IMG/VR virus record: IMGVR_UViG_3300031957_002087
Location: 1 to 54,486 of that record
Direction: 5' to 3' (one strand)
Source of the DNA: a virus
Lineage: Duplodnaviria; Caudoviricetes
DNA length: 54,486 nt
This document shows, piece by piece, positions 4,286 through 47,267 of this stretch (position 1 is its first letter; every line of letters begins with the position of its first letter). The position numbers were made by a program, and so were the translations under genes. Under the pieces are notes generated by a model. It saw nothing but the letters and a program-made list of their open reading frames with translations, had not been told where the DNA came from and searched no databases.

Positions 4286-4876
4286 ATGGCTCGTCGCCGC
4301 AAGAAGGACACCAAGGGCCGGAAGGCCGCGCCGATCACGCTGGCGCCGGTCAACCTGTCCGCAAACATCAAGGCCGAGCTCGTCCCGGTCGAGGTGGAGA
4401 ATCCGCTGTGGTCCCGAGACCACGACGGCGACAAGACAAACCAGAGACGCATAGGGGCCATGGTCAACCTCAACGAGAGCGCCATCACCAGGCTTGCAGC
4501 CAAAGGAGCGATCGACAACGCCCAGGCGCGGGCTGCGATCCGCTTCAGGCAACTGTGGGAGAGGATGGGCGGGGCGGGCGCTGGAGCCATGGACTATTCC
4601 CGCACCTTCGTCGACGGCGGCAAGACGCCAGATCCGATCTCCGAACACCAGATGGAGGCCGGCCGGACACTGAAGGCCGCGGAACAGGCCCTGCGCAAGG
4701 AACACGGGCTCTACGCCTACAAGCTGGTCTGCTATATCTGCGGCGAGGGATACTCGATCTATGACCTCACCGAGACCCGCCGGCAGCGGGACACCATGAC
4801 CGACCTGCTGCGCATGTATCTGGACGTTCTGGCCGGTCTGTGGGGCATGGCGAAGCGAGAGAGGAAAAGGGTATAA
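4286..4876 (+). CDS. Putative late transcription regulator (Q/DUF6456-like HTH)
   Basis: GAIDNAQARAAIRFRQLWE...LVCYICGEGYSI..L pattern; last early gene before the packaging module. Confidence 0.55.
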   Translation: MARRRKKDTKGRKAAPITLAPVNLSANIKAELVPVEVENPLWSRDHDGDKTNQRRIGAMVNLNESAITRLAAKGAIDNAQARAAIRFRQLWERMGGAGAGAMDYSRTFVDGGKTPDPISEHQMEAGRTLKAAEQALRKEHGLYAYKLVCYICGEGYSIYDLTETRRQRDTMTDLLRMYLDVLAGLWGMAKRERKRV

Positions 4877-4880
4877 TCAC

Positions 4881-4897
4881 TGTTGCAATTTGCAACA
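4881..4897. promoter_or_regulatory. Palindromic operator overlapping a probable -35 (TTGCAA) of the Y RNA/rsr promoter
   Basis: TGTTGCA-ATT-TGCAACA, a perfect 7-bp inverted repeat about 20 nt upstream of the first Y RNA. Confidence 0.55.
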
Positions 4898-4917
4898 TGG
4901 TCTGCCATATGAGTTTC

Positions 4918-4989
4918 AGCCAATCGTGGTGAAGGTGACGGTTACTTCTTCTGGTGAAACGGACCGTTTCCGCTTGTTCCCGAATGGTT
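4918..4989 (+). ncRNA. Short Y RNA (YrlB-like)
   Basis: 5'/3' ends pair (AGCCA..TCG/CGA..TGGTT). Shares CGTGGTGAA, CGGTTACTYC, ACCG and GTTCCCG with the adjacent YrlA. Upstream of the Ro60 gene. Confidence 0.65.
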
Positions 4990-4992
4990 CAA

Positions 4993-5132
4993 AACCGCAG
5001 GCGTGGTGAAAGAAGTCGGTTACTCCTTGCTAAGGACGAGGTCGCGGGTTCGAGCCCCGTCATCGGGAAACCGATGTAGCTCAGTTGGTAGAGCGCGTAA
5101 AACACCGGGTTCGTCCGTTCCCGCCTGCGGTT
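4993..5132 (+). ncRNA. yrlA: YrlA-type Y RNA (permuted tRNA-like domain on a Ro60-binding stem)
   Basis: Closing stem AACCGCAGGCG/CGCCTGCGGTT. The T arm GCGGG-TTCGAGC-CCCGT precedes a GAAA-capped acceptor stem (CATCGG/CCGATG) and the D arm TAGCTCAGTTGGTAGAGC. Ends 28 nt upstream of the TROVE gene. Confidence 0.9.
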
Positions 5133-5160
5133 CTGACCTTTCGGCGCATAGGAGAAAGAC

Positions 5161-6462
5161 ATGCGCCTGAATATCGCAACTGCCCAGCCCAAGATCTACA
5201 CCGCCGAAGGTGGCCCGGCCAAGCGTATCTCGCCCGAGGCCGCGCTTCGCCGCTCCGTGCTGTCCTGCCTCCTATGGGAGAAGGAGTTCTACGAGGACGG
5301 CAAGGACATCGTTGCCCGCATTTCCGAGAACGCCGCGCAGGTCTCCAAGGAGACGGTCGCCGCGCTCGCGGTCGAGGCGCGCACCGTGCATGGCCTTCGC
5401 CACGCTCCCCTGATCCTGCTGCTCGACCTGATCCGCCGTGGCGGGCCGGGAGTGGCCGATGCCGTCGACGGCACGATCCGCCGCGCCGACGAGCTCGGCG
5501 AACTGGTCGCGCTCTACTGGCGTGATGGCCGCAAGATGCTGCCGCGCCAGATGAAGGCGGGACTGGCCAAGGCGTTCGGCCGCTTCAACGAGTATGCCCT
5601 TGCCAAGTATGACCGCGACGGGCCGGTGAAGCTGCGTGACGTGCTGTTCATGGCGCATCCGAAGCCGAAGGACGAGGACCAGGCCGCGCTGTTCAAGCGC
5701 ATCGCCGAGCGCCAGCTTGCCACCCCCGACACTTGGGAGGTGGCTCTGTCGGCCGGCGCCAGCAAGAAGGAGTCGTTCGAGCGGCTGATCCGTGACGGGA
5801 AGCTCGGCTATCTCGCCCTGCTGCGCAACCTGCGCAACATGGTCGAGGCTGACTGCGACCGCGATCTGATCGCGCAGGCCATCGTTGCCCGCAAGGGTGC
5901 TGATCTGGTCTGGCCTTTCCGCTACGTGGCGGCGGCGCGCGCGGTTCCGCAGTTGGAGCCGTTCATCGACCAGGCGCTTTGCGAGGCCGTAGCCTCCGGG
6001 CCCCGCCTGCAGGGTGTGACGGCCATCCTTGTAGACGTCTCCAGCTCGATGAACTCGCCCCTGTCGGCAAGGTCGGACATGACCCGCATGGACGCGGCTG
6101 CTGCCCTGGCATCGGTCGTGAACGGCGATGTCCGCGTGTTCACGTTCTCGCATCAGGTTGTCGAGGTTCCGCCTCGCCGTGGCATGTCAGGCGTCGACGC
6201 GGTGATCCGCTCGCAGCCGCACGGCTGGACGTATCTCGGCGCCGCCGTCGATGCGGTCAACCGTCAGGTCAAGCATGACCGCCTGATCGTCATCTCCGAT
6301 GAGCAGACGGCGGATCGCGTTCCTGATCCGGTTGCCCGACACGCCTACATGATCAACGTCGCTTCCAACAAGAACGGCGTCGGCTACGGAAGGTGGACCC
6401 ACATCGACGGCTTCTCCGAGGCTGTGATCCGGTTCATCGCGGAATCCGAGAATGACAGGTGA
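5161..6462 (+). CDS. rsr: Ro60/Rsr TROVE-domain RNA-binding protein with vWA domain
   Basis: LLWEKEFYEDG, FNEYALAKY, LRDVLFMAHPKP, TPDTWEVALS, LGYLALLRNLRN, MIDAS DVSSSM, GFSEAVIRFI; AGGAG RBS. Confidence 0.95.
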   Translation: MRLNIATAQPKIYTAEGGPAKRISPEAALRRSVLSCLLWEKEFYEDGKDIVARISENAAQVSKETVAALAVEARTVHGLRHAPLILLLDLIRRGGPGVADAVDGTIRRADELGELVALYWRDGRKMLPRQMKAGLAKAFGRFNEYALAKYDRDGPVKLRDVLFMAHPKPKDEDQAALFKRIAERQLATPDTWEVALSAGASKKESFERLIRDGKLGYLALLRNLRNMVEADCDRDLIAQAIVARKGADLVWPFRYVAAARAVPQLEPFIDQALCEAVASGPRLQGVTAILVDVSSSMNSPLSARSDMTRMDAAAALASVVNGDVRVFTFSHQVVEVPPRRGMSGVDAVIRSQPHGWTYLGAAVDAVNRQVKHDRLIVISDEQTADRVPDPVARHAYMINVASNKNGVGYGRWTHIDGFSEAVIRFIAESENDR

Positions 6463-6661
6463 GCAACTAAAGCAGGCCGGCATTCGGCTGTTTGGTGAGC
6501 GCGGGTGGCAATCCGCGCTCGCTCTGCATTTGGGGATCGATCGCACTCAGATATGGCGCTACGTGGCGAACAACAGTGTTCCCGGGCCGGTTGCCGCTGC
6601 CGTTGAGTGCTGGATAAGGAATGGCCCGCCTCCAATCAGTTCGGGGCCGAAACGATCTTGA
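6452..6661 (+). CDS. Small HTH (XRE-like) regulator
   Basis: WQSALALHLGIDRTQIWRYVANNSVPGPV helix-turn-helix; overlaps the rsr stop. Confidence 0.75.
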   Translation: MTGEQLKQAGIRLFGERGWQSALALHLGIDRTQIWRYVANNSVPGPVAAAVECWIRNGPPPISSGPKRS

Positions 6662-7272: not shown

Positions 7273-7826
7273 TGCCAGTCCTTCCAAACCCCAAGCATGA
7301 GGCGTTCGCTCAGGGCCTCGCAAAGGGCCGGACGCAAGCCGAAGCCTATGCGGACGCCGGGTTCAAGCCCAATGACGGCCACGCCGCGCGGCTGGCAGGA
7401 AATGGTATGGTCTCGGCACGGGTCCGCGAGTTGCAGGAAAAGACCGCCGCCATGGCCGAGATCGACATCATGTCGACGCTGCGGGAGATGGTGAGGATCG
7501 GTCACTCCGACCTGCGTAGGGCCTTCGACAAGGACGGCCGGGTGAAGCCGCCGAAGGACTGGGACGACGACTTCGCGGCCGCCGTATCGTCTGTCGAGGC
7601 CACGACCACGGTGAAGGATGACAAGGCCGAGACGGTCTACAAGATCAAGCTGTGGGACAAGAACAGCGCGATCGAGAAGATCGCCAAGCACCTGGGCATG
7701 TTCATTGAGCGGTCCGAGGTGACGGTGACGCATGTCTACCATGAGATGAGCGACGACGAGCTCGACCGCGAATTGCAGAACCAGTTCCTGACCGACAAGA
7801 GCAACGCGGTCCAGACGTCGCACTGA
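7272..7826 (+). CDS. terS: Terminase small subunit
   Basis: LPNPKHEAFAQGLAKG..Q.EAY..AG HTH, KIKLWDKNSAIEKIAKHLGMF; directly upstream of TerL. Confidence 0.9.
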   Translation: MPVLPNPKHEAFAQGLAKGRTQAEAYADAGFKPNDGHAARLAGNGMVSARVRELQEKTAAMAEIDIMSTLREMVRIGHSDLRRAFDKDGRVKPPKDWDDDFAAAVSSVEATTTVKDDKAETVYKIKLWDKNSAIEKIAKHLGMFIERSEVTVTHVYHEMSDDELDRELQNQFLTDKSNAVQTSH

Positions 7827-9691
7827 TGCTCCACTACACGCTTGACGACCTGCGGGCCCTGCCCCGGGAGCGCAAGGAGATCGTCGCACAGATCCTCGCC
7901 GAGAAGGAGCGGCGCCGGGCGCAGCGGATGTTCTTCCGCCTGTTCCCCGACGAAGACACGCGCCAGCCCGACGGTTCGATCATCTATGCCCGGGAGAAAT
8001 ACCCGAAGCACCTCGAGTTCTTCAACGCGAGCGCGAAATACCGCGAGACCTGCTTTCTGGCTGCCAACCGTGTCGGAAAGGCGCTTCGCAACGGCACGCC
8101 GGTCGCAACGCCTGGCGGGTGGGCGTCGATAGAGACGCTGAAGGTCGGCGATGCGGTTGTAGCCGGCGACGGGACCATCACGACCGTGACGGGAGTCTAC
8201 CCCCAGGGCGTCAAGCCGCTCTATCGGCTGACGTTCGATGTGGGCGAAACGATCGACTGCTGCGGGGAGCATCTGTGGAAGTATCAGCATCCGCGGTCGC
8301 GCTATGCATATCGCCGCAGCCACGGTGTGACGGAGGCTAACCCATTCCACGGCGAATGGCGGGTTGCGGACACTGAAACGATCCTGAAGGAAGTCGGATC
8401 GAACCCCATCCCAAGAATGCGAGTGGTCATGCCGACGTCACGGCCTTGGCAGTTGGCAAAGCGACAAGTGCCGGTCGACCCGTATCTGCTTGGCGCTCTG
8501 CTTGGAGACGGAACGCTTAGGGGGGGGGTCAGTTTTGCCACGGTTGACCAAGAGATGGTTGAGACGGTTCGGGGAGCGTTGCCGGCAGGCCTTGCGATTA
8601 AGCACTCCGGCGGTTGTGACTACGGCCTCTGCAAGTCCGAAGGTCGAGTCCGTAACTCCAGGGGCCAGTTCTTTAGCGACCATTCGCTAATCAACGACCT
8701 TCGGCATCTGGGCGCCTTCGGTACACTGGCCTCCGAGAAACACGTGCCTCGGGACTATCTTCTGAACGATGTGCCAACCCGCCTTGGGGTCCTTCAGGGC
8801 CTGATGGATACCGATGGCAGCATCACCAAGACCGGTGCCATGGAGTTTTCTTCGGTATCCACCAGGCTTATCGAGGATGTCAAATTCCTCGTTCACTCCC
8901 TGGGTGGCAAGGCCACGGTCGAAGCCAGGCAGACATACTACACCCACAATGGTGAGCGCAGGGCAGGGCAGCCAAGCTACCGCCTGCACATCCGGCTTAA
9001 CATCTGCCCCTTCCGGCTCACGCGGAAGGCAGAGCGCTGGAACCCGAGACGCAACACGGCAGATCGGGTGCTCCACCGCATCGAGGACGCATCCTCCGGC
9101 GAAGCGACATGCATTTCCGTCGCACATCCCGATCGAACGTTCGTCACGGACCACGGAATCGTCACCCACAACACCTGGGCCGGCGCCTATTCGATGACCT
9201 GCCACCTGACCGGGCTTTATCCTGACTGGTGGACGGGAAGGCGGTTCGATCAGCCGATCAGGGCCTGGGCGGCCGGCAAGACCAACGAGACGACGCGCGA
9301 CATCGTGCAGGCGTCTCTGCTGGGGGAAATATCGTTCGAGGGTCCGCGCAAGATCGTCTCGGGCACTGGAATGGTGCCGGGCCATCTGCTCGGTCAGCCG
9401 ACATGGAAGAAGGGCGTCCCCGATCTCGCCGACACGATCAAGGTCCGGCATGTCTCGGGCAAATGGTCCCGCCTCGGGCTGAAGTCCTACGAGCAGGGTC
9501 GCGGATCGTTCGAAGGCACCGCGCAGCATGTGATCTGGGTCGACGAGGAATGCCCGCTCGACGTCTACGGCGAGTGCCTTATACGCACCGCGACCACCAA
9601 CGGGATCATCGTGCTGACGTTCACGCCGCTCGCCGGTCTCAGTGAGACGGTCATGCAGTTCATGCCGACCGAAGACCGCCCCGGAATCTGA
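7826..9691 (+). CDS. terL: Terminase large subunit, ATPase half (P22 gp2-like), intein-containing
   Basis: AANRVGK|T Walker A, HLTGLYPDWW.G.RF, KSYEQGR..FEG, Walker B IWVDEECP, coupling motif TFTP. Stops shortly after TFTP. Confidence 0.92.
   Translation: MLHYTLDDLRALPRERKEIVAQILAEKERRRAQRMFFRLFPDEDTRQPDGSIIYAREKYPKHLEFFNASAKYRETCFLAANRVGKALRNGTPVATPGGWASIETLKVGDAVVAGDGTITTVTGVYPQGVKPLYRLTFDVGETIDCCGEHLWKYQHPRSRYAYRRSHGVTEANPFHGEWRVADTETILKEVGSNPIPRMRVVMPTSRPWQLAKRQVPVDPYLLGALLGDGTLRGGVSFATVDQEMVETVRGALPAGLAIKHSGGCDYGLCKSEGRVRNSRGQFFSDHSLINDLRHLGAFGTLASEKHVPRDYLLNDVPTRLGVLQGLMDTDGSITKTGAMEFSSVSTRLIEDVKFLVHSLGGKATVEARQTYYTHNGERRAGQPSYRLHIRLNICPFRLTRKAERWNPRRNTADRVLHRIEDASSGEATCISVAHPDRTFVTDHGIVTHNTWAGAYSMTCHLTGLYPDWWTGRRFDQPIRAWAAGKTNETTRDIVQASLLGEISFEGPRKIVSGTGMVPGHLLGQPTWKKGVPDLADTIKVRHVSGKWSRLGLKSYEQGRGSFEGTAQHVIWVDEECPLDVYGECLIRTATTNGIIVLTFTPLAGLSETVMQFMPTEDRPGI
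8081..9172 (+). mobile_element. Class 3 intein with LAGLIDADG endonuclease (364 aa) in the TerL Walker A
   Basis: Ala1 (ALRNGTPV); block B EHLW; block F ATCISV; block G VTHN|T; LAGLIDADG motifs LLGALLGDG and LQGLMDTDGS. Confidence 0.9.
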
Positions 9692-12946: not shown

Positions 12947-13012
12947 ATGGGAGAACGCCGCGTTTACCGTGCGATCTGCGACGTTTGCGGCTCGGGTCTC
13001 GCTGATGGGTGA
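12947..13012 (+). CDS. 21-aa CxxC leader ORF overlapping the start of TerL-C
   Basis: GGAG RBS; MGERRVYRAICDVCGSGLADG*; overlaps ATG 13005. Confidence 0.4.
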   Translation: MGERRVYRAICDVCGSGLADG

Positions 13013-13748
13013 GATAAGCTCGTCCAAATACGTTGTTAGGGCGGGCTGGCGGGATGTGCCGCACATCGACGAAAAGACACAGCGCGAACTCCTGGAGGCA
13101 ACTCCTCCTCACCTTCGTGAAGCACGATCCGAAGGCATCCCGTCGATGGGCGCCGGCGCCATCTACCCGGTGCCGCTATCGGAGATCGAGGTCCAGCCCT
13201 TCGCCATCCCGGCCTATTGGCCGAAGGCTTATGCGCTCGACGTCGGCTGGAACCGCACGGCCTGCATCTGGGGAGCCAAGGAGCCGTCGACCGGCGTGCT
13301 CTACCTCTACGCCGAACACTATCGCGGCGAGGCGGTGCCCGAGGTCCATGCCGCGGCGATCAAGGCGCGTGGTGAGTGGATCCGGGGAGCGATCGATCCG
13401 GCGGCGCGCGGGCGCCAGCAGAAGGACGGCGAGCAGCTTCTGGCGACCTATCAGGGGCAGGGGCTGAAGCTTGTTCCCGCCGCCAACGCGGTCGACGCCG
13501 GGCTCTACGCGGTGTGGAGTCTGCTTGAGATCGGGCGGCTGAAGATTTTCTCGACACTGCAGAACTTCAAGAACGAATACCGGGTCTACCGGCGCGACGA
13601 GAAGGGCAAGGTCGTCAAGGTGAACGATCACCTGATGGACGCCGGCCGCTACCTCGTCATGACCTGGGACAAGATCGCGACGATCCAGAGGCCGGCGAGC
13701 ACGATCCGTTCGGGCCCGGCCATCGCTGACGAAGTGGCAGGGTATTGA
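13005..13748 (+). CDS. terL: Terminase large subunit, lid + RNase H-like nuclease half
   Basis: KYVVRAGWRDVPHI...REARSEGIPSMGAGAIYP, ALDVGWN, IDPA, NDHLMDAGRY; coupled to portal. Confidence 0.9.
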   Translation: MGEISSSKYVVRAGWRDVPHIDEKTQRELLEATPPHLREARSEGIPSMGAGAIYPVPLSEIEVQPFAIPAYWPKAYALDVGWNRTACIWGAKEPSTGVLYLYAEHYRGEAVPEVHAAAIKARGEWIRGAIDPAARGRQQKDGEQLLATYQGQGLKLVPAANAVDAGLYAVWSLLEIGRLKIFSTLQNFKNEYRVYRRDEKGKVVKVNDHLMDAGRYLVMTWDKIATIQRPASTIRSGPAIADEVAGY

Positions 13749-33643: not shown

Positions 33644-36600
33644 ATGGACAACCTCTTTGGCGACCTGATCCCTGCTGCCCCGGCGGGCGGCGGGCTTTTT
33701 GACGACCTCGTTCCGAAGGCCAAGGAGCGCGCCACGGCGGGCCAGGCGTTTGGTCGCGGCGTCGATCAGGCCCAGGGCATGCTCTATGGCGGTGTGGAAG
33801 CCATCGGCGAGGCCGTTGGTTCAGAGACCATCACCGACTTCGGCCGTGAAGGGCGCGAGCGCAATGCCGAGGAAGCCGCTGCCTATCCAGAGCAGCAGTC
33901 AGCATTCGGCATTCGCAGCGCAGGCGATGCCGGCCAGTGGGCGAAGGAGACCTTTGCCGGCCAGGCCCCGATGCTGGCCGCACCTCTTGCCGGTGCCGTG
34001 GCCGGTGGCGCGATCGGTTCGGTCGTCCCTGTCGTCGGCACGACCATCGGCGCGCTGATCGGCGCGGCCATCCCGTCGTTCCTCATGGGTTCAGGCGAAA
34101 TTCAGGGGGCGATCAAGGAAAAGGACCCGGATGCGTCCGCTCCCGGCTATGCGCTGGGCGGTGGTGCTGCGGTTGCTGCCCTCGATACCGTTCTCCCCGG
34201 CAAGATCGGCACGCGGCTTCTGAAGGCTGCTGGCCTCGATATTGCAGAGCAGGTCGCCAAGAAAGTGCTGCTGACCCGTGTCGGAACGGAGATCGGCAAG
34301 GGTGCAGCGACGGAAGGCGTGACGGAAGCCATCCAGTCGGTCATTACCGAGGCGACGGCAGCACAGGCTACCGGGCAGGAACTATCGCCCGACTGGTGGC
34401 AGCAGGCAATCGAGGAAGGTCTGGCCGGCGCATTGATCGGCGGATCGGTGCAGGGCGCGACCGGCATCCCGACGCCGAAGGAAAAGGCGCTTGGTGTAGA
34501 TGCCGAGACTGGCCTTCCCGAGGGTGCTGCCCCGGCAGACACTCTATTCGGCGCAGAGCCGGGCACAGAGGCGGCGCCAGCGCGCGAAACGCCGTCGCCC
34601 CTTGATCGTGTCGTCCCCGAGCTAAAAGACGCTCCACGGCCCGCCAATGAGCCGATGCCGGTGGCTCCCGATCTCGACCGGGCAGACAGCCCGCGCCTGA
34701 CCGAAGCGGATCGCGCCTCCCCCTTGCCAAACGACCTGATCGACGATGGCAAGAGGATCATGGCCGAGGCGACCGGAGAGCCTTCGGTCGACGATGGTTC
34801 GATGCTGCGGGCCGCGCAGGAAGCCTATCCGGCACAGGAGATGCCGACGGCTCCCGATCTGGACCGCCGCGCGCCGGCCGGTGCGGAACTCTCCATTGCG
34901 CCCGATCTGGATACCGGCGTCTTTGCCGACCTGGTTCCGGCTTCCAAGGGTGAATGGCAGCAGTTCGGCCCGGAGACCGGTACGCTCAACATTCCCCGTT
35001 CCGAAATGCCACAGATCAAGGCCGAGCATCGCGGCGCCATGGTCAACTTCCTCGAAGCCAAGGGCATCGGCCATCGCGAAGAGACTGTTGCAGCCGGTGA
35101 CCTGAAGCCGACGCAGGCCGAGTTTTCGCGGTCCAAAGTCAACAAGGCCAAGGGTTTCGAGGGTGGTGACCGCTCCATCCTGGTATCCAGCGACGGCCAT
35201 GTTCTCGACGGGCATCACCAGTGGCTTGCCGCGCGCGAAGCCGGAGAGCCGGTCAAGATCATGCGGCTCGATGCTCCCATTGCGGACCTCCTGCCGCTGG
35301 CGCATGAGTTCCCGAGCTCGAAACTGTCCGTCGGCAAGACCAAGCGCGACACCGCGCCCCGCGACATCGTGCAATTCCTCGCCGCACAGGGCGGCATCCG
35401 CGACCATCGCGGCGAACTGAAGTCCGCAGGGGCCGCCAAGCATTTCGTGCCGGGTGTTGGCCGTCTGGTCCGCGACATCGGCATGGATCTGGACAAGGCC
35501 CGAGAAGCAGCGGAAGAGGCCGGCTATCTCGGACAGGCGGGCGAGTACCAGACCTCGACCGTTGCCGACCTGCTCAATGCCATCGACAGCACCTTGCGGG
35601 GCGAGCGGGTCTATTCCCGTGCGGATGCCGGCAGGGCAGAGGATCGACGGGCCTTGAACCAGCTTCAGGGCGGCGACAGCCGGCAGGTGGCCGTTCGCGA
35701 AGAACTCGAGGCCATCCTGAAGGAAGTCGGCGGCCGGCTGCTGCCCGGCGAGATCGACGAGGCTATGATCCTGATCACGCAGGAAGGGGCATGGCCCGAG
35801 GAAGCAATTGCCGAGGTGATGGAGCGCGGCGCTCTTGCCTTTGAGGCGGAAACCCACGACAATGCAGGCCAAGGAGAAGCCCGTTATGACGTCCCGTTTG
35901 ACACCGGAGCAGAGGACCGCGCTGGCGCACAAGCTGCTTATCCGGTCGGCAACCGGGAAGGGCCTGAGCAAAGAGCAGAAGCAGGAAGCCCGTCGCCACG
36001 CCGGGAACCTGGAGGCGGCGAACAAGCTCGAGCAGCGGATGCAAAACCGCAAGAAGCTGAACTAGCTACCGAGCGCGGTGCCGAAGGCAAGCCGCAGGCC
36101 GTCATCCCCGGGGCAGAGCGCGCGTCTGACGCCACCATGGCGCAGCGCAAGGCTGATGCCCCTCTCAAGGCCAAGGTAGAGCAGAAGGACGTCGGCGGGC
36201 TGTTTGGGGACGACTCCAAGCAGACCGACCTGATGGACCTGCCGGGCGCGAGGGGCGAGCCGAAATTCTCCCGCCGCGCGATCACGGACACCGACGCCTT
36301 CAAGCGTTGGTTCGGATCGTCAAAGGTCGTCGACGAGAACGGCGAGCCGATGGTCGTGTACCATGGGACGCAAGAGAAGATCAAAGCATTCACTGGCAAG
36401 CGCGAAGTCTGGCTTGGCGGCTCGGATGACAATGTGGTGGATGCAGAGGTCGCCTTCTTCACAGATAACCGATCAACAGCCCGCTCTTACGGGAAGAACA
36501 CGACGCCATCATACCTCTCGCTCCAGAACCCGCTGATCGTCGATGCGGGCGGGGCCAACTACTCAGGGTTTGTGCCAGCCGCTTATATCGGAGAGGCGCT

Positions 36601-39600
36601 AGCGGGCGGCTATGACGGCGTCATCGTCGAGAACATGCGCGACGACGCGTCGTCAGGCGGTGAGCAGGCGACTGTCTACATCACCGCGAAGGCCACGCAG
36701 ATCAAGTCCGCCACCGGCAACCGTGGCACGTTCGATCCGGCTGACCCGAGGATCAATTTCGCACGCCGCCAAGGCGCTGCCATTGACGAGCAGATCGTCG
36801 GCGGCACGGTCCAGTACCGTCTAAGCCCGGAGTTCGTCGACAAGGCGGAAAGCGTTCGCAAGGCGCTGCGCCAGAAGCTCGACGCCATGGGCCTGCCGGG
36901 GATCGGTCTTCGCGTCTGGGAATCGATGCGCGCCGCCATGGACGGGCAGACCTTCATCGTCGACGGCCAGTATCTGCGCGGGATGATCGACGTGGCGTTC
37001 GACTATTCCGACCCGGAGTCCACGGTCGACCACGAAGCGATCCACGCCATGAGCGCGCTCGGACTGTTCTCGGACAATGAATGGGCGATCCTGTCGCGCA
37101 AGTCCAAGAAGGAATGGATCGGCAAATACGACATCGCCCGGAATTATGGCATGTTCCCCGAGGACGTGCAGATCGAGGAAGGCATCGCTCACGCCTATGC
37201 CGACTGGGCCACAGGTGGCCGGATGGATGGCGTCATTGCCGCCTCTTTCAAGAAGATCAAGGCGCTGCTGAAGGGACTTTACCAGGCGCTCACCGGGGCC
37301 GGGTTCTCGACGGTCGAGGACATCTTTGCCGAGGTGGCATCGGGCAAGATAGGTAACCGCACGGTAGACTCGCAGGGGCGCGGCAAGCCGAAGTTCTCGT
37401 CGCGGCCAGAGACCGAAGTGGTCGATACCGTCGACGGTCCGCGCGAGCAGTTGGTCATCCCCGGCGCCGAACGCATCCGCGACAAGGACCTCGCCGAGCG
37501 CAAGATGGAAGGCCGCAAGGGTTCTGACAAGGCGCAGAAGTCCGTCGGCGACCTGCCGCTGTTCTCCGACGAGAAGGACCAGTTGTCGCTGTTCCAGTCC
37601 GTCTGGCACGGTACGCCACATGAGTTCGACAAGTTCATGCTGGACAAGATCGGCACGGGCGAGGGCAATCAGTCGTTCGGCTGGGGACTGTACTTCGCAT
37701 CGAAGAAGGAGATCGCGGAGCATTATCGCAAGACACTCTCCAACTCCAGTGTGGTCTATCCAGACGGCACACAGCAGAAGGTCGAGACCGTCGGCGAGAT
37801 AGATGCACTCGTCGAGAAGTTCCCGGCAGAGGCCGAGCGCCTTGGCCTAGACAGCGGCATCGAGAACCGCGACGTGCGCAAGCTCATGTTTTCGAGCACC
37901 ATTGCTGATGTCGCCACGTCAGGCTTTGTCGAGACCGATTGGAGCGAGGGCGCGGACATCATCGAGGCTGCTCGCCGCTATCTTGAAAAGAAGCGCCACG
38001 AAGCCCCCGATCACCTTGAGGCCACCTATGTTCCCCGCGCCACGGCGATCGAAGTTGGCAAGGTCTACCAGCGGGCGATTGACCTCATTGACAAGATGAA
38101 GGACGCGGGCCTGAGTTCGGTCAAGGGCAAGCTCTACCAGGCCGACATCCCCAACGACAGCGAACTACTGGTCTGGGATAAGGAACTCGCTGACCACCCT
38201 GCGGACATGCAAGAAAAGGTTGTCGAGGCGTTCCAGAGCTTTATCCCTGGCTTCCGCCCTGATCGCGAACGGTCCGTCATGTCAATTATCACAGACCTGA
38301 CACTAGCGGCCGGCCAAGCTGGCTTTTCCGGGGATAGCGCAAGGCGGGCCGCCTCAGAAGCCCTGCGCGCGGCCGGCATCCCAGGCCACAGGTATCTGGA
38401 CAACACGTCCCGCGCGGCTGGTGACGGCTCCTACAACTACGTCATCTACGACGAGAACGCGATCAGGATCGAAGCCCGCTTCAAGATCACGTCACAGTCG
38501 GTCGCCAAGGTTCGCAAGGCTGCGTCTGGCGCGCTCGGTCGCCGCATCATGTCGGCCATCAAGCGCGGCAAGCCTGACCCGGAGACGGTCGGTGAATACT
38601 CGCACCGCAAGATGATCGACTATCTGCACCCGCTGCGCGTGATGACGGAGAGCGTCGGCGCCAACCTGCACGATGCGATGAACGCCTATCTGCAGGCACG
38701 CCTCGCAGACGACGCCACGGTATCCCGCATCCAGCAGATGCACGACACATTCGTCACGCCCATGGTGGATGCGCTGGCGCGGTCAGGCGCCTCGCTGGAA
38801 GACCTGCACGACTATCTCTATGCCCGCCATGCCCCGGAGCGGAATCGCGTCGTCGGGCTGCGCAATGAGCCTGGCAGCGATCTCCACAACGCGGTGACTG
38901 ATCATGACGTGAAGGGCGCTTCCGGCTGGTCGACGAACGAGGCCAAGAAGGTCCTTGCCCGTCTGCGCACAGATCCAGAGAAGTTTGCCGGCATTCAGGA
39001 AGCTGCTCGGCATATGCGGGCCATGCTCGACGCCAACCTTTTGGAGCAGAAGCAGGCCGGGCTCATCTCCGACGAAAGCTATGATCTGCTCACGAAGCAG
39101 TGGCTGAACTACGTGCCCCTTCGCAGCAACGATGCCGTAGACGACAATGGCGATTTCTCGCCCGGCCGTGGACGCGGGTTCGATGTCCGAGGCGACGAGT
39201 TCCAGGCTGCCACGGGACGTTTCTCTGAAGCCGAGAATATCCCCGCATGGGGCATCACCCTTGGCGAGCGGACGCACTTGCGGTCCGAGCACAACAACGT
39301 CGGCAAGGCAGTCCTGCGCTTCCTCTCGCGATACGATCCAAAGGGCGAGAAGATCGCCCGCGTCTATTGGTCCGGCGAGGTGCCGTTCGGGAACATCGAG
39401 AAAGCGCCGGAAGTAAAGCGCCGGGTCATCAATGCCGAGGGCGTGGCAGTCGACAAGGTTGTGCCGCCGTCGACGATCTCGCCCACCATGTTCGCCGTCA
39501 AGGATGGCGGGCGCGTCTACTATGTGGAGTTTGCCGACGAGAAAGTCGGGGCCGCGCTCAAGAACATGGGCGTCATGCACCTTGACGTCGTGTCGAGGCT

Positions 39601-41269
39601 GGCCCGCAAGTGGACGGGCTTCCAATCCCTGATCAACACCAGGGCGAACCCGGCGTTCGTGCCGATCAATATCATTCGTGACGCGGCAACCGGCGGCATC
39701 CATCTTCTCGACGAGGGGTTCACTGCCGCCGAAGCAACCAAGATCGTGGCGTCCATCCCGAAGGCGTGGGGCGCGCTGTGGCGCAATGCGCGCGGCCGAC
39801 CGGGATCAGGCAAGGTCGACGCGGCCCTGAAGGAATACATCGCTGCCGGCGGCAAAATATCATTCGAGCCGCACAAGACGCTCGAGGATACGGTCAACGA
39901 ACTGCGCGGGCATATGCGCGATGCGATGAACGGAAAGTCGAAGCCGAAGGCGGCATGGCAGGCTTTCGTCAAGTTCGTCGGGGATCTGAACGACGCTGGC
40001 GAAAACGGCATGCGCCTGGCGGCCTATATGGCAGCGCGCTCAAAAGGGCGTAGCGTCAAGCAGGCAGCGTTCCTTGGCCGTGATCTGACGGTCGACTTCA
40101 AGAAGCACGGCGAAGTCGGCCCCTTCATGAACTCTTGGTTCGTGTTCTTCAACGCGAGCATCCAGGGCAACTACAATATCGGTGCGCGCCTGCTGAAGTC
40201 CAAGAAGGTGCGCCGTGCCGCGTTCATGATCGCAGCCAGTGGCGTTCTCCTTGACCTCTGGAATCGCACCGTTGCGGGTGGCGACGATGACGATGACGAG
40301 AACTACTATGTGAAGATGCTGCGCAACGAGCCTTGGAAGTTCGAGCGCCAGATGGTCATCTTCTACGGGAGCGGCGAGGGCGACTATTTCTCGATCCCGC
40401 TGCCCTATGGCTACAACGCCATGCACCATATGGGCTTGCAGGCGAGCGCCGCGGCGTTTGGCGATGTCGACCCGCTAGAGGCCATCATAAAGACCGTTCG
40501 GGTGACTTTCGATGCCTTCAACCCTATCGGGTCAGGAGGTCATTGGCTCAATATCTTCCTGCCGACAGTCTTTGACCCTGCGATCGAGATCGCAACCAAC
40601 CAATCGTTTACCGGCGCGCCTATCAGCCCGACCCGCTATCCTGGGGACCACTCGCCCGACTCGCAGAAGCATTTCGCGGCAACGCCCGATGCGTTCCAGA
40701 AGACGGCCGAGTTCTTCAATTGGGCGACGGGCGGCAATGAGATTGAGCCCGGCGCCGTCGACGTTTCGCCGGACACCATCGAGCATCTTTGGGGATACGT
40801 GGTCGGCGGCATTGGCCGGTTCTTTGGCCAGACTGTAGACGTGGCCGGGAAGGTTGCGACGGGCAGGACCGACGAGCTCGAGTGGGAGCACATTCCGATC
40901 GTCAAGTCGTTCCGTGGCAAATACGACGACGACGCTCGCCGTGCAGAATACTACCGCCTACGCGAAGAAGTGCAGACGGCAAGGGAATATTACGTCGACT
41001 ATCTGGAGTCTGGAAACGAGGAAGCCGCGGAGGACTTCAAGTCGCGATACCCGATAGAGGTCGAGGCGATTGGTGTGTTCGACGGTGCGGAGAAGCAACT
41101 GCGCCGCGCACGAAAGGCGAAGCGCGCCATTGAACTGGATAAGAGCCTGTCTCGCGCCGAGAAGGACGAGAAGCTGAAGCCCATTCAGGAGATCGAGATG
41201 GAGATCATGAACTCTGCGCGGGCGCTGTACGCGGGGATCAGGAGGGAGCAGTCGGGGCGGAACGACTAG
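33644..41269 (+). CDS. Giant polyvalent internal virion protein (TM region, ParB-like, ART-PolyVal-like, HExxH peptidase-like, LPD23-like, LPD38-like)
   Basis: LKPTQ..DGHHQW; FKRWFG.SKVVDENGEP.VVYHGT...QIKSATGNRGTFD; HEAIH..EE; WHGTPH.FDKF...IGTGEG.Q.FGWGLYF; TVDF.K.G...FFNASIQG...IPLPYG. Confidence 0.85.
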   Translation: MDNLFGDLIPAAPAGGGLFDDLVPKAKERATAGQAFGRGVDQAQGMLYGGVEAIGEAVGSETITDFGREGRERNAEEAAAYPEQQSAFGIRSAGDAGQWAKETFAGQAPMLAAPLAGAVAGGAIGSVVPVVGTTIGALIGAAIPSFLMGSGEIQGAIKEKDPDASAPGYALGGGAAVAALDTVLPGKIGTRLLKAAGLDIAEQVAKKVLLTRVGTEIGKGAATEGVTEAIQSVITEATAAQATGQELSPDWWQQAIEEGLAGALIGGSVQGATGIPTPKEKALGVDAETGLPEGAAPADTLFGAEPGTEAAPARETPSPLDRVVPELKDAPRPANEPMPVAPDLDRADSPRLTEADRASPLPNDLIDDGKRIMAEATGEPSVDDGSMLRAAQEAYPAQEMPTAPDLDRRAPAGAELSIAPDLDTGVFADLVPASKGEWQQFGPETGTLNIPRSEMPQIKAEHRGAMVNFLEAKGIGHREETVAAGDLKPTQAEFSRSKVNKAKGFEGGDRSILVSSDGHVLDGHHQWLAAREAGEPVKIMRLDAPIADLLPLAHEFPSSKLSVGKTKRDTAPRDIVQFLAAQGGIRDHRGELKSAGAAKHFVPGVGRLVRDIGMDLDKAREAAEEAGYLGQAGEYQTSTVADLLNAIDSTLRGERVYSRADAGRAEDRRALNQLQGGDSRQVAVREELEAILKEVGGRLLPGEIDEAMILITQEGAWPEEAIAEVMERGALAFEAETHDNAGQGEARYDVPFDTGAEDRAGAQAAYPVGNREGPEQRAEAGSPSPRREPGGGEQARAADAKPQEAELATERGAEGKPQAVIPGAERASDATMAQRKADAPLKAKVEQKDVGGLFGDDSKQTDLMDLPGARGEPKFSRRAITDTDAFKRWFGSSKVVDENGEPMVVYHGTQEKIKAFTGKREVWLGGSDDNVVDAEVAFFTDNRSTARSYGKNTTPSYLSLQNPLIVDAGGANYSGFVPAAYIGEALAGGYDGVIVENMRDDASSGGEQATVYITAKATQIKSATGNRGTFDPADPRINFARRQGAAIDEQIVGGTVQYRLSPEFVDKAESVRKALRQKLDAMGLPGIGLRVWESMRAAMDGQTFIVDGQYLRGMIDVAFDYSDPESTVDHEAIHAMSALGLFSDNEWAILSRKSKKEWIGKYDIARNYGMFPEDVQIEEGIAHAYADWATGGRMDGVIAASFKKIKALLKGLYQALTGAGFSTVEDIFAEVASGKIGNRTVDSQGRGKPKFSSRPETEVVDTVDGPREQLVIPGAERIRDKDLAERKMEGRKGSDKAQKSVGDLPLFSDEKDQLSLFQSVWHGTPHEFDKFMLDKIGTGEGNQSFGWGLYFASKKEIAEHYRKTLSNSSVVYPDGTQQKVETVGEIDALVEKFPAEAERLGLDSGIENRDVRKLMFSSTIADVATSGFVETDWSEGADIIEAARRYLEKKRHEAPDHLEATYVPRATAIEVGKVYQRAIDLIDKMKDAGLSSVKGKLYQADIPNDSELLVWDKELADHPADMQEKVVEAFQSFIPGFRPDRERSVMSIITDLTLAAGQAGFSGDSARRAASEALRAAGIPGHRYLDNTSRAAGDGSYNYVIYDENAIRIEARFKITSQSVAKVRKAASGALGRRIMSAIKRGKPDPETVGEYSHRKMIDYLHPLRVMTESVGANLHDAMNAYLQARLADDATVSRIQQMHDTFVTPMVDALARSGASLEDLHDYLYARHAPERNRVVGLRNEPGSDLHNAVTDHDVKGASGWSTNEAKKVLARLRTDPEKFAGIQEAARHMRAMLDANLLEQKQAGLISDESYDLLTKQWLNYVPLRSNDAVDDNGDFSPGRGRGFDVRGDEFQAATGRFSEAENIPAWGITLGERTHLRSEHNNVGKAVLRFLSRYDPKGEKIARVYWSGEVPFGNIEKAPEVKRRVINAEGVAVDKVVPPSTISPTMFAVKDGGRVYYVEFADEKVGAALKNMGVMHLDVVSRLARKWTGFQSLINTRANPAFVPINIIRDAATGGIHLLDEGFTAAEATKIVASIPKAWGALWRNARGRPGSGKVDAALKEYIAAGGKISFEPHKTLEDTVNELRGHMRDAMNGKSKPKAAWQAFVKFVGDLNDAGENGMRLAAYMAARSKGRSVKQAAFLGRDLTVDFKKHGEVGPFMNSWFVFFNASIQGNYNIGARLLKSKKVRRAAFMIAASGVLLDLWNRTVAGGDDDDDENYYVKMLRNEPWKFERQMVIFYGSGEGDYFSIPLPYGYNAMHHMGLQASAAAFGDVDPLEAIIKTVRVTFDAFNPIGSGGHWLNIFLPTVFDPAIEIATNQSFTGAPISPTRYPGDHSPDSQKHFAATPDAFQKTAEFFNWATGGNEIEPGAVDVSPDTIEHLWGYVVGGIGRFFGQTVDVAGKVATGRTDELEWEHIPIVKSFRGKYDDDARRAEYYRLREEVQTAREYYVDYLESGNEEAAEDFKSRYPIEVEAIGVFDGAEKQLRRARKAKRAIELDKSLSRAEKDEKLKPIQEIEMEIMNSARALYAGIRREQSGRND
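35886..36065 (+). CDS. Nested out-of-frame 59-aa basic helical protein
   Basis: AAGGAG RBS; 51/59 codons end in G/C (hand count) while the main frame is locally A/T-ending and low complexity. Confidence 0.6.
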   Translation: MTSRLTPEQRTALAHKLLIRSATGKGLSKEQKQEARRHAGNLEAANKLEQRMQNRKKLN

Positions 41270-45890: not shown

Positions 45891-46126
<236 letters not shown>

Positions 46127-46889
46127 GTCAGGCGATTTGTGATGGTCCGGTCCCGCATGGCGTGGCCATAGGTGTCCACCACCAACTGCGCACTCTCCCA
46201 ACCTCCCAACCATGCGACCGTTACAGGGTCGATCCCTGCCCGCAGCAGCCCGGTCGCAAAGCCGTGGCGCAGGCAGTGCGGTGTCAGCTTGCGGATGCCC
46301 GCGCGCTTGATCGATGCGCTCCAGGCTGACTTGACGCCGTGGCGGCTGCTGTAGCCGAACACCGGCCCGCTGCGGTCGGTCGCTAGGTTCGCCAGCGCGA
46401 CAATGAGGGACGGCGGCAGGTTCGACACATGGTCGTTGCCGTTCTTGCCCTTGCGCAGCAGTGCCTCGGCGCGGTTGAAATCGACATCATCCCAAAGCAA
46501 GCTTGTGATCTGGGAAATGCGGGCGCCCGTCAGATAGCCGAACATGACCAGTGCCGCGAGGTTGGCGGGTGCGTGTTCCATGAAGCTCTGCACCCACGGC
46601 CAGTCTGCCTCGTCGCGCGCCTTCTTGGGGACGGAGAAGCGGTCAACCTTCGTCAGCGGCGGGCATAGGTCGAGGCTGGCGGCGTGGTTGATGACTGCCA
46701 CGGTCGGCGTGATGAACTGCCGATTCCGAGTGGCCGGTCCTGCCTTCGGATAGCACCTGATCGCAGCCATGCGGATTGCGCCTGCCGTGATGTCCCGCAC
46801 GATAGTGTTCCTCCAATGCTTCAGAGGGATTTCCAGGAAGCGGCTTGACTTGTCTGCATCCATGTAGAGCAGGGCCGCGTCTCCGAAGC

Positions 46890-47267
46890 TCAGGACGGCT
46901 TCCGGGCCATCAAGGTGACGTTTGAACTCGCGGGCCTCCGCGCGGTTTGCGATGCGCTCTGCGGTTTGTTTGTCAGCCGTGCGAGTGCTTTCGTGAAGCC
47001 GTCTGCCGGCAACCGTACCGCGATACCACCAGACCTCTCCGCGCTGATAGAGTTTGAGCGGCATGGTTCGGGTTCCTCCAGCAGGATTTCCAGATGCTCT
47101 GGCAGTAACAGCATAGCTTTGCCGAAAACGCGACACGCGCCAAGTTCTCGCGCTCTCCTGCGCAGCGCACGTTCGGAGATACGCACACCCTTATCCGCAA
47201 GCTTTTCCACAGCCTGGGCCGGTGACATGGCTCGGTCAATCACGGTTGGATCTGCGAGCGCCCGCAT
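46890..47267 (-). CDS. Excisionase-like HTH protein overlapping int
   Basis: AAGGAG RBS; SPAQAVEKL..KGVRISERALRRRARELG. Confidence 0.65.
   Translation of the reverse strand: MRALADPTVIDRAMSPAQAVEKLADKGVRISERALRRRARELGACRVFGKAMLLLPEHLEILLEEPEPCRSNSISAERSGGIAVRLPADGFTKALARLTNKPQSASQTARRPASSNVTLMARKPS

Follow-up and report, generated by a model that had tools for sequence, protein, structure and literature searches.

A phage YrlA RNA beside a Ro60 gene as a probable complete tRNA permutation with a composite anticodon-like arm

YrlA RNAs are Ro60-bound Y RNAs that carry pseudouridine and dihydrouridine in the T and D loops of a tRNA-like domain (Chen et al. 2014, PMC4201824). According to these authors Ro60 binds the handle of the RNA, with a 5' motif, GNCGAAN0-1G, thought to contact the protein, and the tRNA-like domain is an effector-binding module, modified in Salmonella by TruB and DusA, that mimics the D arm, the T arm and the acceptor stem. 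A stem-loop upstream of the T arm was labelled 'V' in their work and oriented as a variable arm. Wang et al. (2018, bioRxiv 10.1101/312249) likened YrlAs to circularly permuted tRNAs and discussed an origin from a dimeric tRNA. Descriptions of YrlAs since 2014 confine the tRNA mimicry to the D, T and acceptor parts, and the sole solved structure, from Salmonella, is without an anticodon loop. Here we analyzed the YrlA-class RNA encoded beside a Ro60 gene at positions 4993-5134 of a temperate phage genome, the virus record IMGVR_UViG_3300031957_002087 of 54,486 bases, the whole of which is called the window. This RNA is probably a complete permutation of a class-I tRNA with a composite anticodon-like arm, the handle leaving via a break in the 5' strand of that arm; such an RNA would present a tRNA shape.

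The segment 4993-5134 (+) is a phage YrlA-class Y RNA, as a preliminary description of this DNA had proposed, and lies beside its Ro60 gene. The Rfam YrlA model (RF02553) matched positions 5016-5127 with 40.7 bits, at an E-value of 1.4e-7 in E-value mode with 601 nucleotides (nt) searched and of 1.3e-5 when the whole window was searched. Rfam at its gathering thresholds gave no match in the window, the score being lower than the YrlA cut-off of 69 bits, which is a curated score rather than a biological trait; at the place discussed below the Rfam consensus lacks a hairpin, and the outer stem aligned poorly to it. The E-value passes the cut-off of 5e-5 of the second search of Chen et al. (PMC4201824), whose model and search space differed from ours. 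Our own model, R1, scored 123.9 bits over 4993-5134. The same model matched positions 520-665, 818-994 and 1016-1166 of the CcrColossus locus (111.9, 113.7 and 85.8 bits), which are the YrlA positions of Chen Table S2 (PMC4201824), thus tying the window RNA to the published YrlAs. The order of T arm, closed acceptor stem-loop and D arm, and the conserved T and D sequences, are all found in the window RNA. The criterion given for YrlAs is a place on the same strand as a Ro60 (TROVE) gene and at most 4 kb from it (PMC4201824); here the RNA match ends at 5134 and the Ro60 open reading frame (ORF) starts at 5161, which leaves a spacing of 27 nt. At the putative Ro60-contact motif the window RNA carries GGUGAAAG (5005-5012), in which U replaces a C of the published motif, and its aligned relatives carry blocks of the GGUGUAG, GGCGUAG or GGUGAAG type. 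Within the YrlA family the window RNA is an ordinary member that scores below threshold.

In the YrlAs of Mycobacterium smegmatis, Gordonia, Streptosporangium, Rhizobium etli, phage ET08 and CcrColossus, all of which bear a hairpin, we found the same-strand Ro60 neighbour, the T-acceptor-D order, the near-invariant D and T sequences, a 5' handle motif, the hairpin with a 7-nt loop and the pairs formed after the D arm that are also seen in the window. The window RNA differs in that it falls below the gathering cut-off and has U for C in the handle motif; the hairpin, a variable arm according to the paper, is here read as an anticodon arm. The crystal structure of the Salmonella Typhimurium YrlA is that of an L-shaped, permuted tRNA mimic with a closed acceptor stem of 6 base pairs (bp) and with a stem formed by the 5' and 3' ends under the D stem, all of which the window RNA shares or resembles (bioRxiv 10.1101/312249). 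The Salmonella RNA 'lacks the anticodon loop', and its anticodon-stem equivalent enters the handle with a kink, whereas the window RNA has an extra hairpin with a 7-nt loop that branches at the junction of anticodon stem and handle. For Deinococcus radiodurans Yrn1 an 'anticodon arm' with a 5-bp stem was proposed by Chen et al. (PMC4201824), but Yrn1 has a 6-nt loop, another order of arms and a doubtful D arm, and the window RNA has a 7-nt loop and all other tRNA parts. The papers found in our search, outside which lay the supplementary figure of Chen et al. and the journal version of Wang et al., included none that reads the YrlA hairpin as an anticodon arm. The novelty lies in a modest, family-wide re-reading of the published 'V' hairpin; the YrlA kind of RNA is itself known.

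The hairpin at 5025-5035 and three pairs between 5036-5038 and 5096-5098 make up a stem of 5 bp with a 7-nt loop, since hairpin and proximal pairs share an unbroken 3' strand. Direct reading of the sequence gave the segments CC (5025-5026), TTGCTAA (5027-5033), GGACG (5034-5038), AGGTC (5039-5043) and CGT (5096-5098) exactly where the preliminary description had placed them. A 5-bp stem that follows tRNA position 26 and whose 3' strand continues into a variable loop of 4-5 nt and the T stem was found in the window and in 52 of 67 distinct homologues. The 5' strand of this stem (positions 27-31) is not continuous; it is formed by 5096-5098 and by 5025-5026 (or 5024-5026), with the handle between them. 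Sequence and pairing agree with two earlier claims: an exit of the handle from the anticodon stem at its 5' strand, and closure of the acceptor end by GAAA, which deprives the acceptor-like stem of a free 3' end. The hairpin occupies tRNA positions 29/30-40/41 and does not lie between positions 44 and 48, where a class-II variable arm is placed. Because the nucleotides that covary with those after the D arm lie 3' of the hairpin, the hairpin is on the anticodon side of positions 42-43 and not at the variable-arm site.

We propose that the RNA runs from the 3' strand of the anticodon stem through a 5-nt variable loop, the T arm, the GAAA-sealed 6-bp acceptor stem and the D arm to position 26, after which the next 2-3 nt would find their partners immediately 3' of the hairpin (2-3 bp, with the 7-nt loop beyond). 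The Ro60-binding handle would exit through the break in the 5' strand of the anticodon-like stem. Coaxial stacking of the two short helices into one arm would be favoured because the 3' strand of the hairpin runs unbroken into the proximal pairs, and the loop may keep a U-turn of the tRNA type, with U33, a purine at 37 and A38. Ro60 would then carry a look-alike of the whole tRNA body, neither chargeable nor decoding, and could display it to some factor of host or phage able to sense tRNA shape from the elbow to the anticodon loop; modification enzymes, repair enzymes and nucleases are candidates for such a factor.

The conservation of the arm was determined in relatives collected with a Ro60 protein search, which gave 43 viral loci and 27 loci on bacterial genome contigs, the latter mostly from Alphaproteobacteria with some from Acidobacteriota, Chloroflexota and others. 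Among annotated phages, BLAST detected the Ro60 gene in those of Xanthomonas, Caulobacter and Brevundimonas, and the RNA itself in those of Gordonia, Microbacterium and Mycobacterium. With the raw MAFFT alignment as input, RNAalifold predicted neither the hairpin nor the proximal pairs, because gaps were misplaced there; the structure of R1, built from the window and 24 aligned relatives, was therefore supplied by hand. A search of 74 sources with R1 gave 70 matches at E <= 1e-12, of which 67 were distinct. A composite arm was counted where 5 of 5 pairs formed, 1-3 of them with the strand after the D arm and at least 2 in cis, closing a 7-nt loop.

By this count the 52 homologues with the arm were 31 of the 37 viral or phage rows and 21 of the 30 genome-contig rows. 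Over all 67 rows the whole structure was 95.4% paired, compared with 65.4% in column shuffles (none of 500 reached the observed value) and 41-49% when partners were slid. The two pairs between the post-D strand and the nucleotides 3' of the hairpin were standard in 97.8% of cases and the cis pairs of the hairpin in 84.3%. One of these proximal pairs was GC in 28 rows, AU in 19, CG in 13 and UA in 4, and the other was GC in 54, UA in 8 and AU in 2. In the rows with the arm both were Watson-Crick with the post-D strand in 52 of 52, and the alternative pairing in cis, with the invariant UU of the upstream linker, was available in 4 of 52; since the choice of the 52 rows partly required these pairs, the figure of 97.8% from all rows is the fairer one. 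The same arm was seen in five of the seven seed YrlAs of Chen et al. (PMC4201824, Supplementary text 1), those of R. etli, phage ET08, Streptosporangium roseum, Gordonia polyisoprenivorans and M. smegmatis, but not in those of Salmonella and Pseudomonas fulva, and these seeds add the pair types AA/TT and CC/GG. The published CcrColossus YrlAs likewise carry the hairpin. Retention of a 7-nt anticodon-like loop was thus confirmed, with compensatory changes in homologues. The preliminary description had taken this loop to be unusual for a YrlA, and that view has to be given up: the arm is standard in the homologues, the Chen seeds and CcrColossus, and had been drawn in 2014 as 'V' (PMC4201824).

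Several observations weigh against reading the hairpin as part of an anticodon-like arm. The nearest-neighbour fold of the window sequence preferred another register (-53.9 against -48.6 kcal/mol), in which the hairpin pairs 5025-5029 with 5037-5041 and 5021-5023 pairs with 5097-5099, and the partition function gave the pairs 5036-5038/5096-5098 a probability of about 0.002. If this single-sequence fold were the true one, the hairpin would be a variable arm, as in Chen et al. (2014), and the handle helix would be the equivalent of the anticodon stem. Both the minimum free energy (MFE) and the centroid structure of the window contain the 5025-5029/5037-5041 hairpin, better by 5.3 kcal/mol, and the published name of the stem-loop upstream of T is 'V' (PMC4201824). 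Of the 54 homologues with a variable loop of 5 nt, just 4 pair fully in this register and 38 reach at most 3 of 5 pairs. In addition, the nucleotides that covary with the post-D strand are 3' of the hairpin, which places it outside positions 44-48, and its loop has 7 nt with U33 and a purine at 37. Variable-arm loops are not known to carry this signature. A variable arm is therefore very unlikely in our judgement.

Other points against the composite anticodon-like arm concern its count and its consequences. The pairing alignment was fitted to R1, which is why the arm was recounted with a script that took only the T-stem and D-stem anchors from the alignment. The hairpin is part of R1 itself, and matches were counted only at E <= 1e-12, both of which inflate the proportion of 52 in 67. 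Fifteen of the 67 homologues are without the composite arm: in about 9 of them the post-D strand takes part in four or five pairs and the loop is not closed, and a few, including the closest relative on a bacterial contig (L048, 81% Ro60 identity), retain a hairpin whose loop is shorter. In 26 of the 52 rows with the arm, a full 5-bp stem could also be formed in cis. Stacking, the U-turn and any partner are moreover inferred.

Expression of the RNA is also a weak point. The sequence recovered from four RNA runs was mostly ordinary tRNA, and no RNA sequencing run contained more than 0.04 of the sampled words. Two short contigs about 90% alike to the window sequence (records 16 and 21, from runs X17 and X19) span 4929-5108 and 4939-5107; both come from soil metatranscriptome runs of two studies, whose libraries may contain DNA, and they do not prove transcription. 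Scanning of positions 4600-5400 for promoters and terminators found none.

The loop of the window RNA, UUGCUAA, has the 7 nt, the U33 and the purine 37 of an anticodon loop. Across the 52 rows with the composite arm, position 32 was a pyrimidine in 46, position 33 was U in 49, position 37 was a purine in all 52 and position 38 was A in 46. All four bases are found at positions 34 and 35, and there are 22 triplets (TGT in 11 rows, GCT in 8, TGG in 4 and the others in 1-3 each). The triplet appears from this alignment to be free to vary and not itself selected, and since U33, the purine 37 and A38 stay fixed while 34 and 35 drift, selection may act on the shape of the loop. Nearly every loop has UAA or GGA at its end, positions 36-37 being UA in 29 of 52 and GG in 13 of 52. 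The raw counts for coupling of G36 with G37 were 13, 1, 2 and 36 (Fisher p 2e-9); a tree-aware test found 2 supported independent pairs, with a median p of 0.5, and had no power. Inspection of the alignment by eye gave no covarying partner for the UAA or GGA ending. In bacterial tRNAs N6-threonylcarbamoyladenosine (t6A37) is made in the context U36-A37 and 1-methylguanosine (m1G37) in the context G36-G37, which is a lead and not a result.

A free triplet, with 22 types in 52 rows, would also be expected if the arm were a leftover of an ancestral tRNA or tRNA dimer, harmless or of help in folding and read by no partner. The 15 of 67 homologues that manage without the composite arm fit this idea, as do the enterobacterial and Pseudomonas YrlAs, which lack it, and the dimeric-tRNA origin was discussed by Wang et al. 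(2018). ARAGORN called 11 of the 67 homologues in native order, compared with 58 of 670 sequences in which only the 5' part had been shuffled, a weak excess that points the same way. The same counts weakly suggest that the 5' handle might be the decayed acceptor and D arm of a first tRNA. Compensatory changes, however, keep both short helices across phages of Actinobacteria and Alphaproteobacteria as well as contigs of Acidobacteriota, Chloroflexota and others, and fixed U33, R37 (R, purine) and A38 beside drifting positions 34 and 35 are the pattern of selection on loop shape. We regard a mere leftover as unlikely.

The preliminary description had also suggested a decoy for anticodon nucleases or tRNA-sensing systems, and the displayed loop could in principle be a bait or sensor for anticodon nucleases or for tRNA-directed defence or counter-defence systems. 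The element is phage-borne and uncharged yet tRNA-shaped; loci with two or three copies carry different triplets; and in Salmonella, according to the abstract of PMC7790460, rsr-yrlBA belongs to an RNA-repair operon that responds to damaged tRNAs. All of this is circumstantial. Against it, a scan of 38 window proteins recognised no gene for RNA repair or a nuclease, and in the family alignment called for in that description, in which the 7-nt loop arm is kept in 52 of 67, the 22 triplets of 52 relatives show no common target and do not point to a single fixed one for a decoy function. A bait or sensor role seems to us decidedly unlikely. The bolder proposal that the arm is a working recognition element throughout the family, an unchargeable tRNA replica of full length, with a loop that obeys tRNA rules, read by enzymes directed at anticodon loops (modification enzymes, repair ligases or anticodon nucleases), with phage Ro60-YrlA particles as baits or sensors in conflicts over tRNA integrity and the triplets standing for different targets, is unlikely as well. 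If the composite anticodon-like arm, with selection on U33 and R37, holds for most non-enterobacterial YrlAs, the sought partner of the tRNA-like domain may measure or read the anticodon end, which narrows the search. The published M. smegmatis YrlA, whose expression was shown by Chen et al. (2014), has the same arm with the loop CUUCUAA, and cheap tests are possible there.

To compare the RNA with tRNAs, it was cut at the acceptor loop by a script and the handle dropped. ARAGORN called a 73-nt tRNA with the triplet gct in this de-permuted construct of the window RNA, in agreement with the earlier statement that it is a near-complete circularly permuted tRNA. Of all 67 de-permuted homologues 64 were called, including all 52 with the hairpin, compared with 0 of 335 mononucleotide shuffles; for rows with four or five post-D pairs such calls mean little, because the join itself closes the loop. 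The likeness to tRNA-Thr that had been reported was not specific: in a comparison with 32 distinct tRNAs from a Mesorhizobium genome (loci covered 30 of the 44 places matched) the best matches were to Asp (60 identities), Ala (56) and Thr-cgt (55). The architecture of the preliminary interpretation was therefore borne out, and the rarity and the Thr-likeness were not.

In native order ARAGORN found 0 tRNA genes in the window, and the Rfam tRNA model gave the window RNA 14.3 bits (E 6.1) compared with a cut-off of 29. On the other hand, a 'tRNA' feature lies over the element in four of five annotated phage records (Table 1), and in the fifth, that of Trax, a hypothetical coding sequence lies over it. 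Since sequences with a shuffled 5' part were still called, the anticodon-like arm together with the T arm is nearly enough to trigger a call, which explains these features; the four annotations are probably false calls, and such calls inflate phage tRNA counts. They could also be taken as a sign of a genuine tRNA gene, or of a permuted pre-tRNA from which a decoding tRNA is made, and possible processing of some YrlAs was raised by Wang et al. (bioRxiv 10.1101/312249). Circularly permuted tRNA genes of algae and an archaeon, cited in the same preprint, likewise have a closed acceptor hairpin first and ends in the anticodon-stem region. These genes yield decoding tRNAs, whereas nothing suggests such processing for the window RNA, and bacteria are not known to have a splicing endonuclease (Wang et al. 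2018). The failure of both tRNA finders in the window, the 6-bp acceptor stem with its closing tetraloop, the presence of a Y RNA handle and the adjoining Ro60 gene make a decoding tRNA extremely improbable. A complete tRNA permutation with a composite anticodon-like arm is the reading that we retain, and the features of the RNA are listed under it in Table 1.

Table 1. Features of the YrlA-class RNA and its neighbours in the window, and tRNA features annotated over YrlA-type RNAs in phage records (for the latter, positions in the locus named).
Feature	Positions	Strand	Evidence
Second small Y RNA, YrlB-like	4916-4992	+	R1 with filters off: 33.8 bits, E 7.7e-9
YrlA-class Y RNA, whole	4993-5134	+	Rfam RF02553 and model R1; limits refer to the model match rather than to mapped RNA termini
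Outer stem, 5' strand; pairs with 5122-5132	4993-5003	+	MFE fold; helix 96.5% paired, both-side changes at 8/8 pairs
GGUGAAAG, candidate Ro60-contact motif	5005-5012	+	Conserved alignment block; likeness to the Chen 2014 motif (PMC4201824)
Inner handle stem, 5' strand UCGGU; pairs with 5104-5108	5016-5020	+	Helix 2: 91.2% paired, both-side changes at 7/7 pairs
Linker UUAC(U), handle to hairpin	5021-5024	+	Alignment columns near-invariant
Distal part of putative anticodon-like arm: CC 5025-5026, loop UUGCUAA 5027-5033, GG	5025-5035	+	Cis helix 84.3% paired
ACG, 3' strand of putative proximal anticodon-stem pairs (positions 41-43); pairs with CGU 5096-5098	5036-5038	+	Helix 4: 97.8% paired
Variable loop AGGUC, 5 nt, class-I type	5039-5043	+	AGGTC in 27/52 homologues, 4-5 nt in 52/52
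T arm	5044-5060	+	99.7% paired
Acceptor-like stem, 6 bp: CATCGG 5061-5066, GAAA 5067-5070, CCGATG 5071-5076	5061-5076	+	Helix 6: 96.3% paired, both-side changes at 6/6 pairs
Positions 8-9 (TA), D arm 5079-5094, position 26 (G 5095)	5077-5095	+	99.2% paired
CGU, 5' strand of putative proximal anticodon-stem pairs (positions 27-29)	5096-5098	+	Covariation in homologues
3' strands of inner (5104-5108) and outer (5122-5132) handle stems, conserved block between	5104-5132	+	MFE fold, alignment
Ro60 gene (TROVE plus vWA), 433 amino acids	5161-6462	+	Pfam TROVE 1.7e-12, VWA_2 2.9e-6; phrog_850 RNA-binding protein 6.4e-50
tRNA annotation over YrlA-type RNA, Magritte, Arg-tct	L001 1479-1555
tRNA annotation over YrlA-type RNA, Myrna, Asp	L002 1485-1556
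tRNA annotation over YrlA-type RNA, CcrColossus, Gln	L105 918-985
tRNA annotation over YrlA-type RNA, Xanthomonas phage 10KY502B, Thr	L106 1061-1128

Many loci have two or three tandem YrlA copies per Ro60 gene, each with a different loop triplet; these include the CcrColossus (L105) and Xanthomonas phage 10KY502B (L106) loci and L010, L012, L018, L058, L064 and L073, and some of the copies are without the hairpin. The second small Y RNA of the window has the same handle as the YrlA, with about 9 nt in place of the tRNA-like domain (79 model positions), and many of the related loci have a similar match of about 80 nt close to Ro60. At 4881-4897 (+), directly after the stop of the ORF 4286-4876, lies a perfect hairpin of 7 bp with a 3-nt loop and no T run behind it.

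The Ro60 gene is preceded in the phage genome by genes for a DnaB-type helicase and a resolvase and followed by those for the small and large terminase subunits and structural genes. An ORF of 69 amino acids at 6452-6661 (+) overlaps its end; the product has a helix-turn-helix-like segment, matches phrog_3626 and scores 22.5 bits with Pfam YdaS_toxin, under the cut-off of 30. This ORF is kept directly downstream of Ro60 in 22 of 70 related loci (tblastn) and may encode a protein that works with the Ro60-Y RNA module or regulates it.

The 40 nt at 46011-46050 (+) read like a tRNA 5' half, with acceptor strand, D arm, anticodon stem and the loop TTGGTAA. This stretch adjoins a tyrosine-integrase gene at 46066-47136 (-) and resembles a phage attachment site (attP), which agrees with the attP and its TTGGTAA loop noted in the preliminary description; ARAGORN and Rfam called no tRNA at 46011-46050. 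The gene of the large terminase is apparently split between ORFs 7826-9691 (+) and 12969-13745 (+). The first has Hint and LAGLIDADG (intein-type) matches ahead of a Terminase_6N part, and the second, about 3.3 kb downstream with other ORFs in between, corresponds to the C-terminal part of large terminases. An ORF of 2541 amino acids at 33644-41266 (+) matches large virion-associated proteins of unknown function (phrog_14770, phrog_616).

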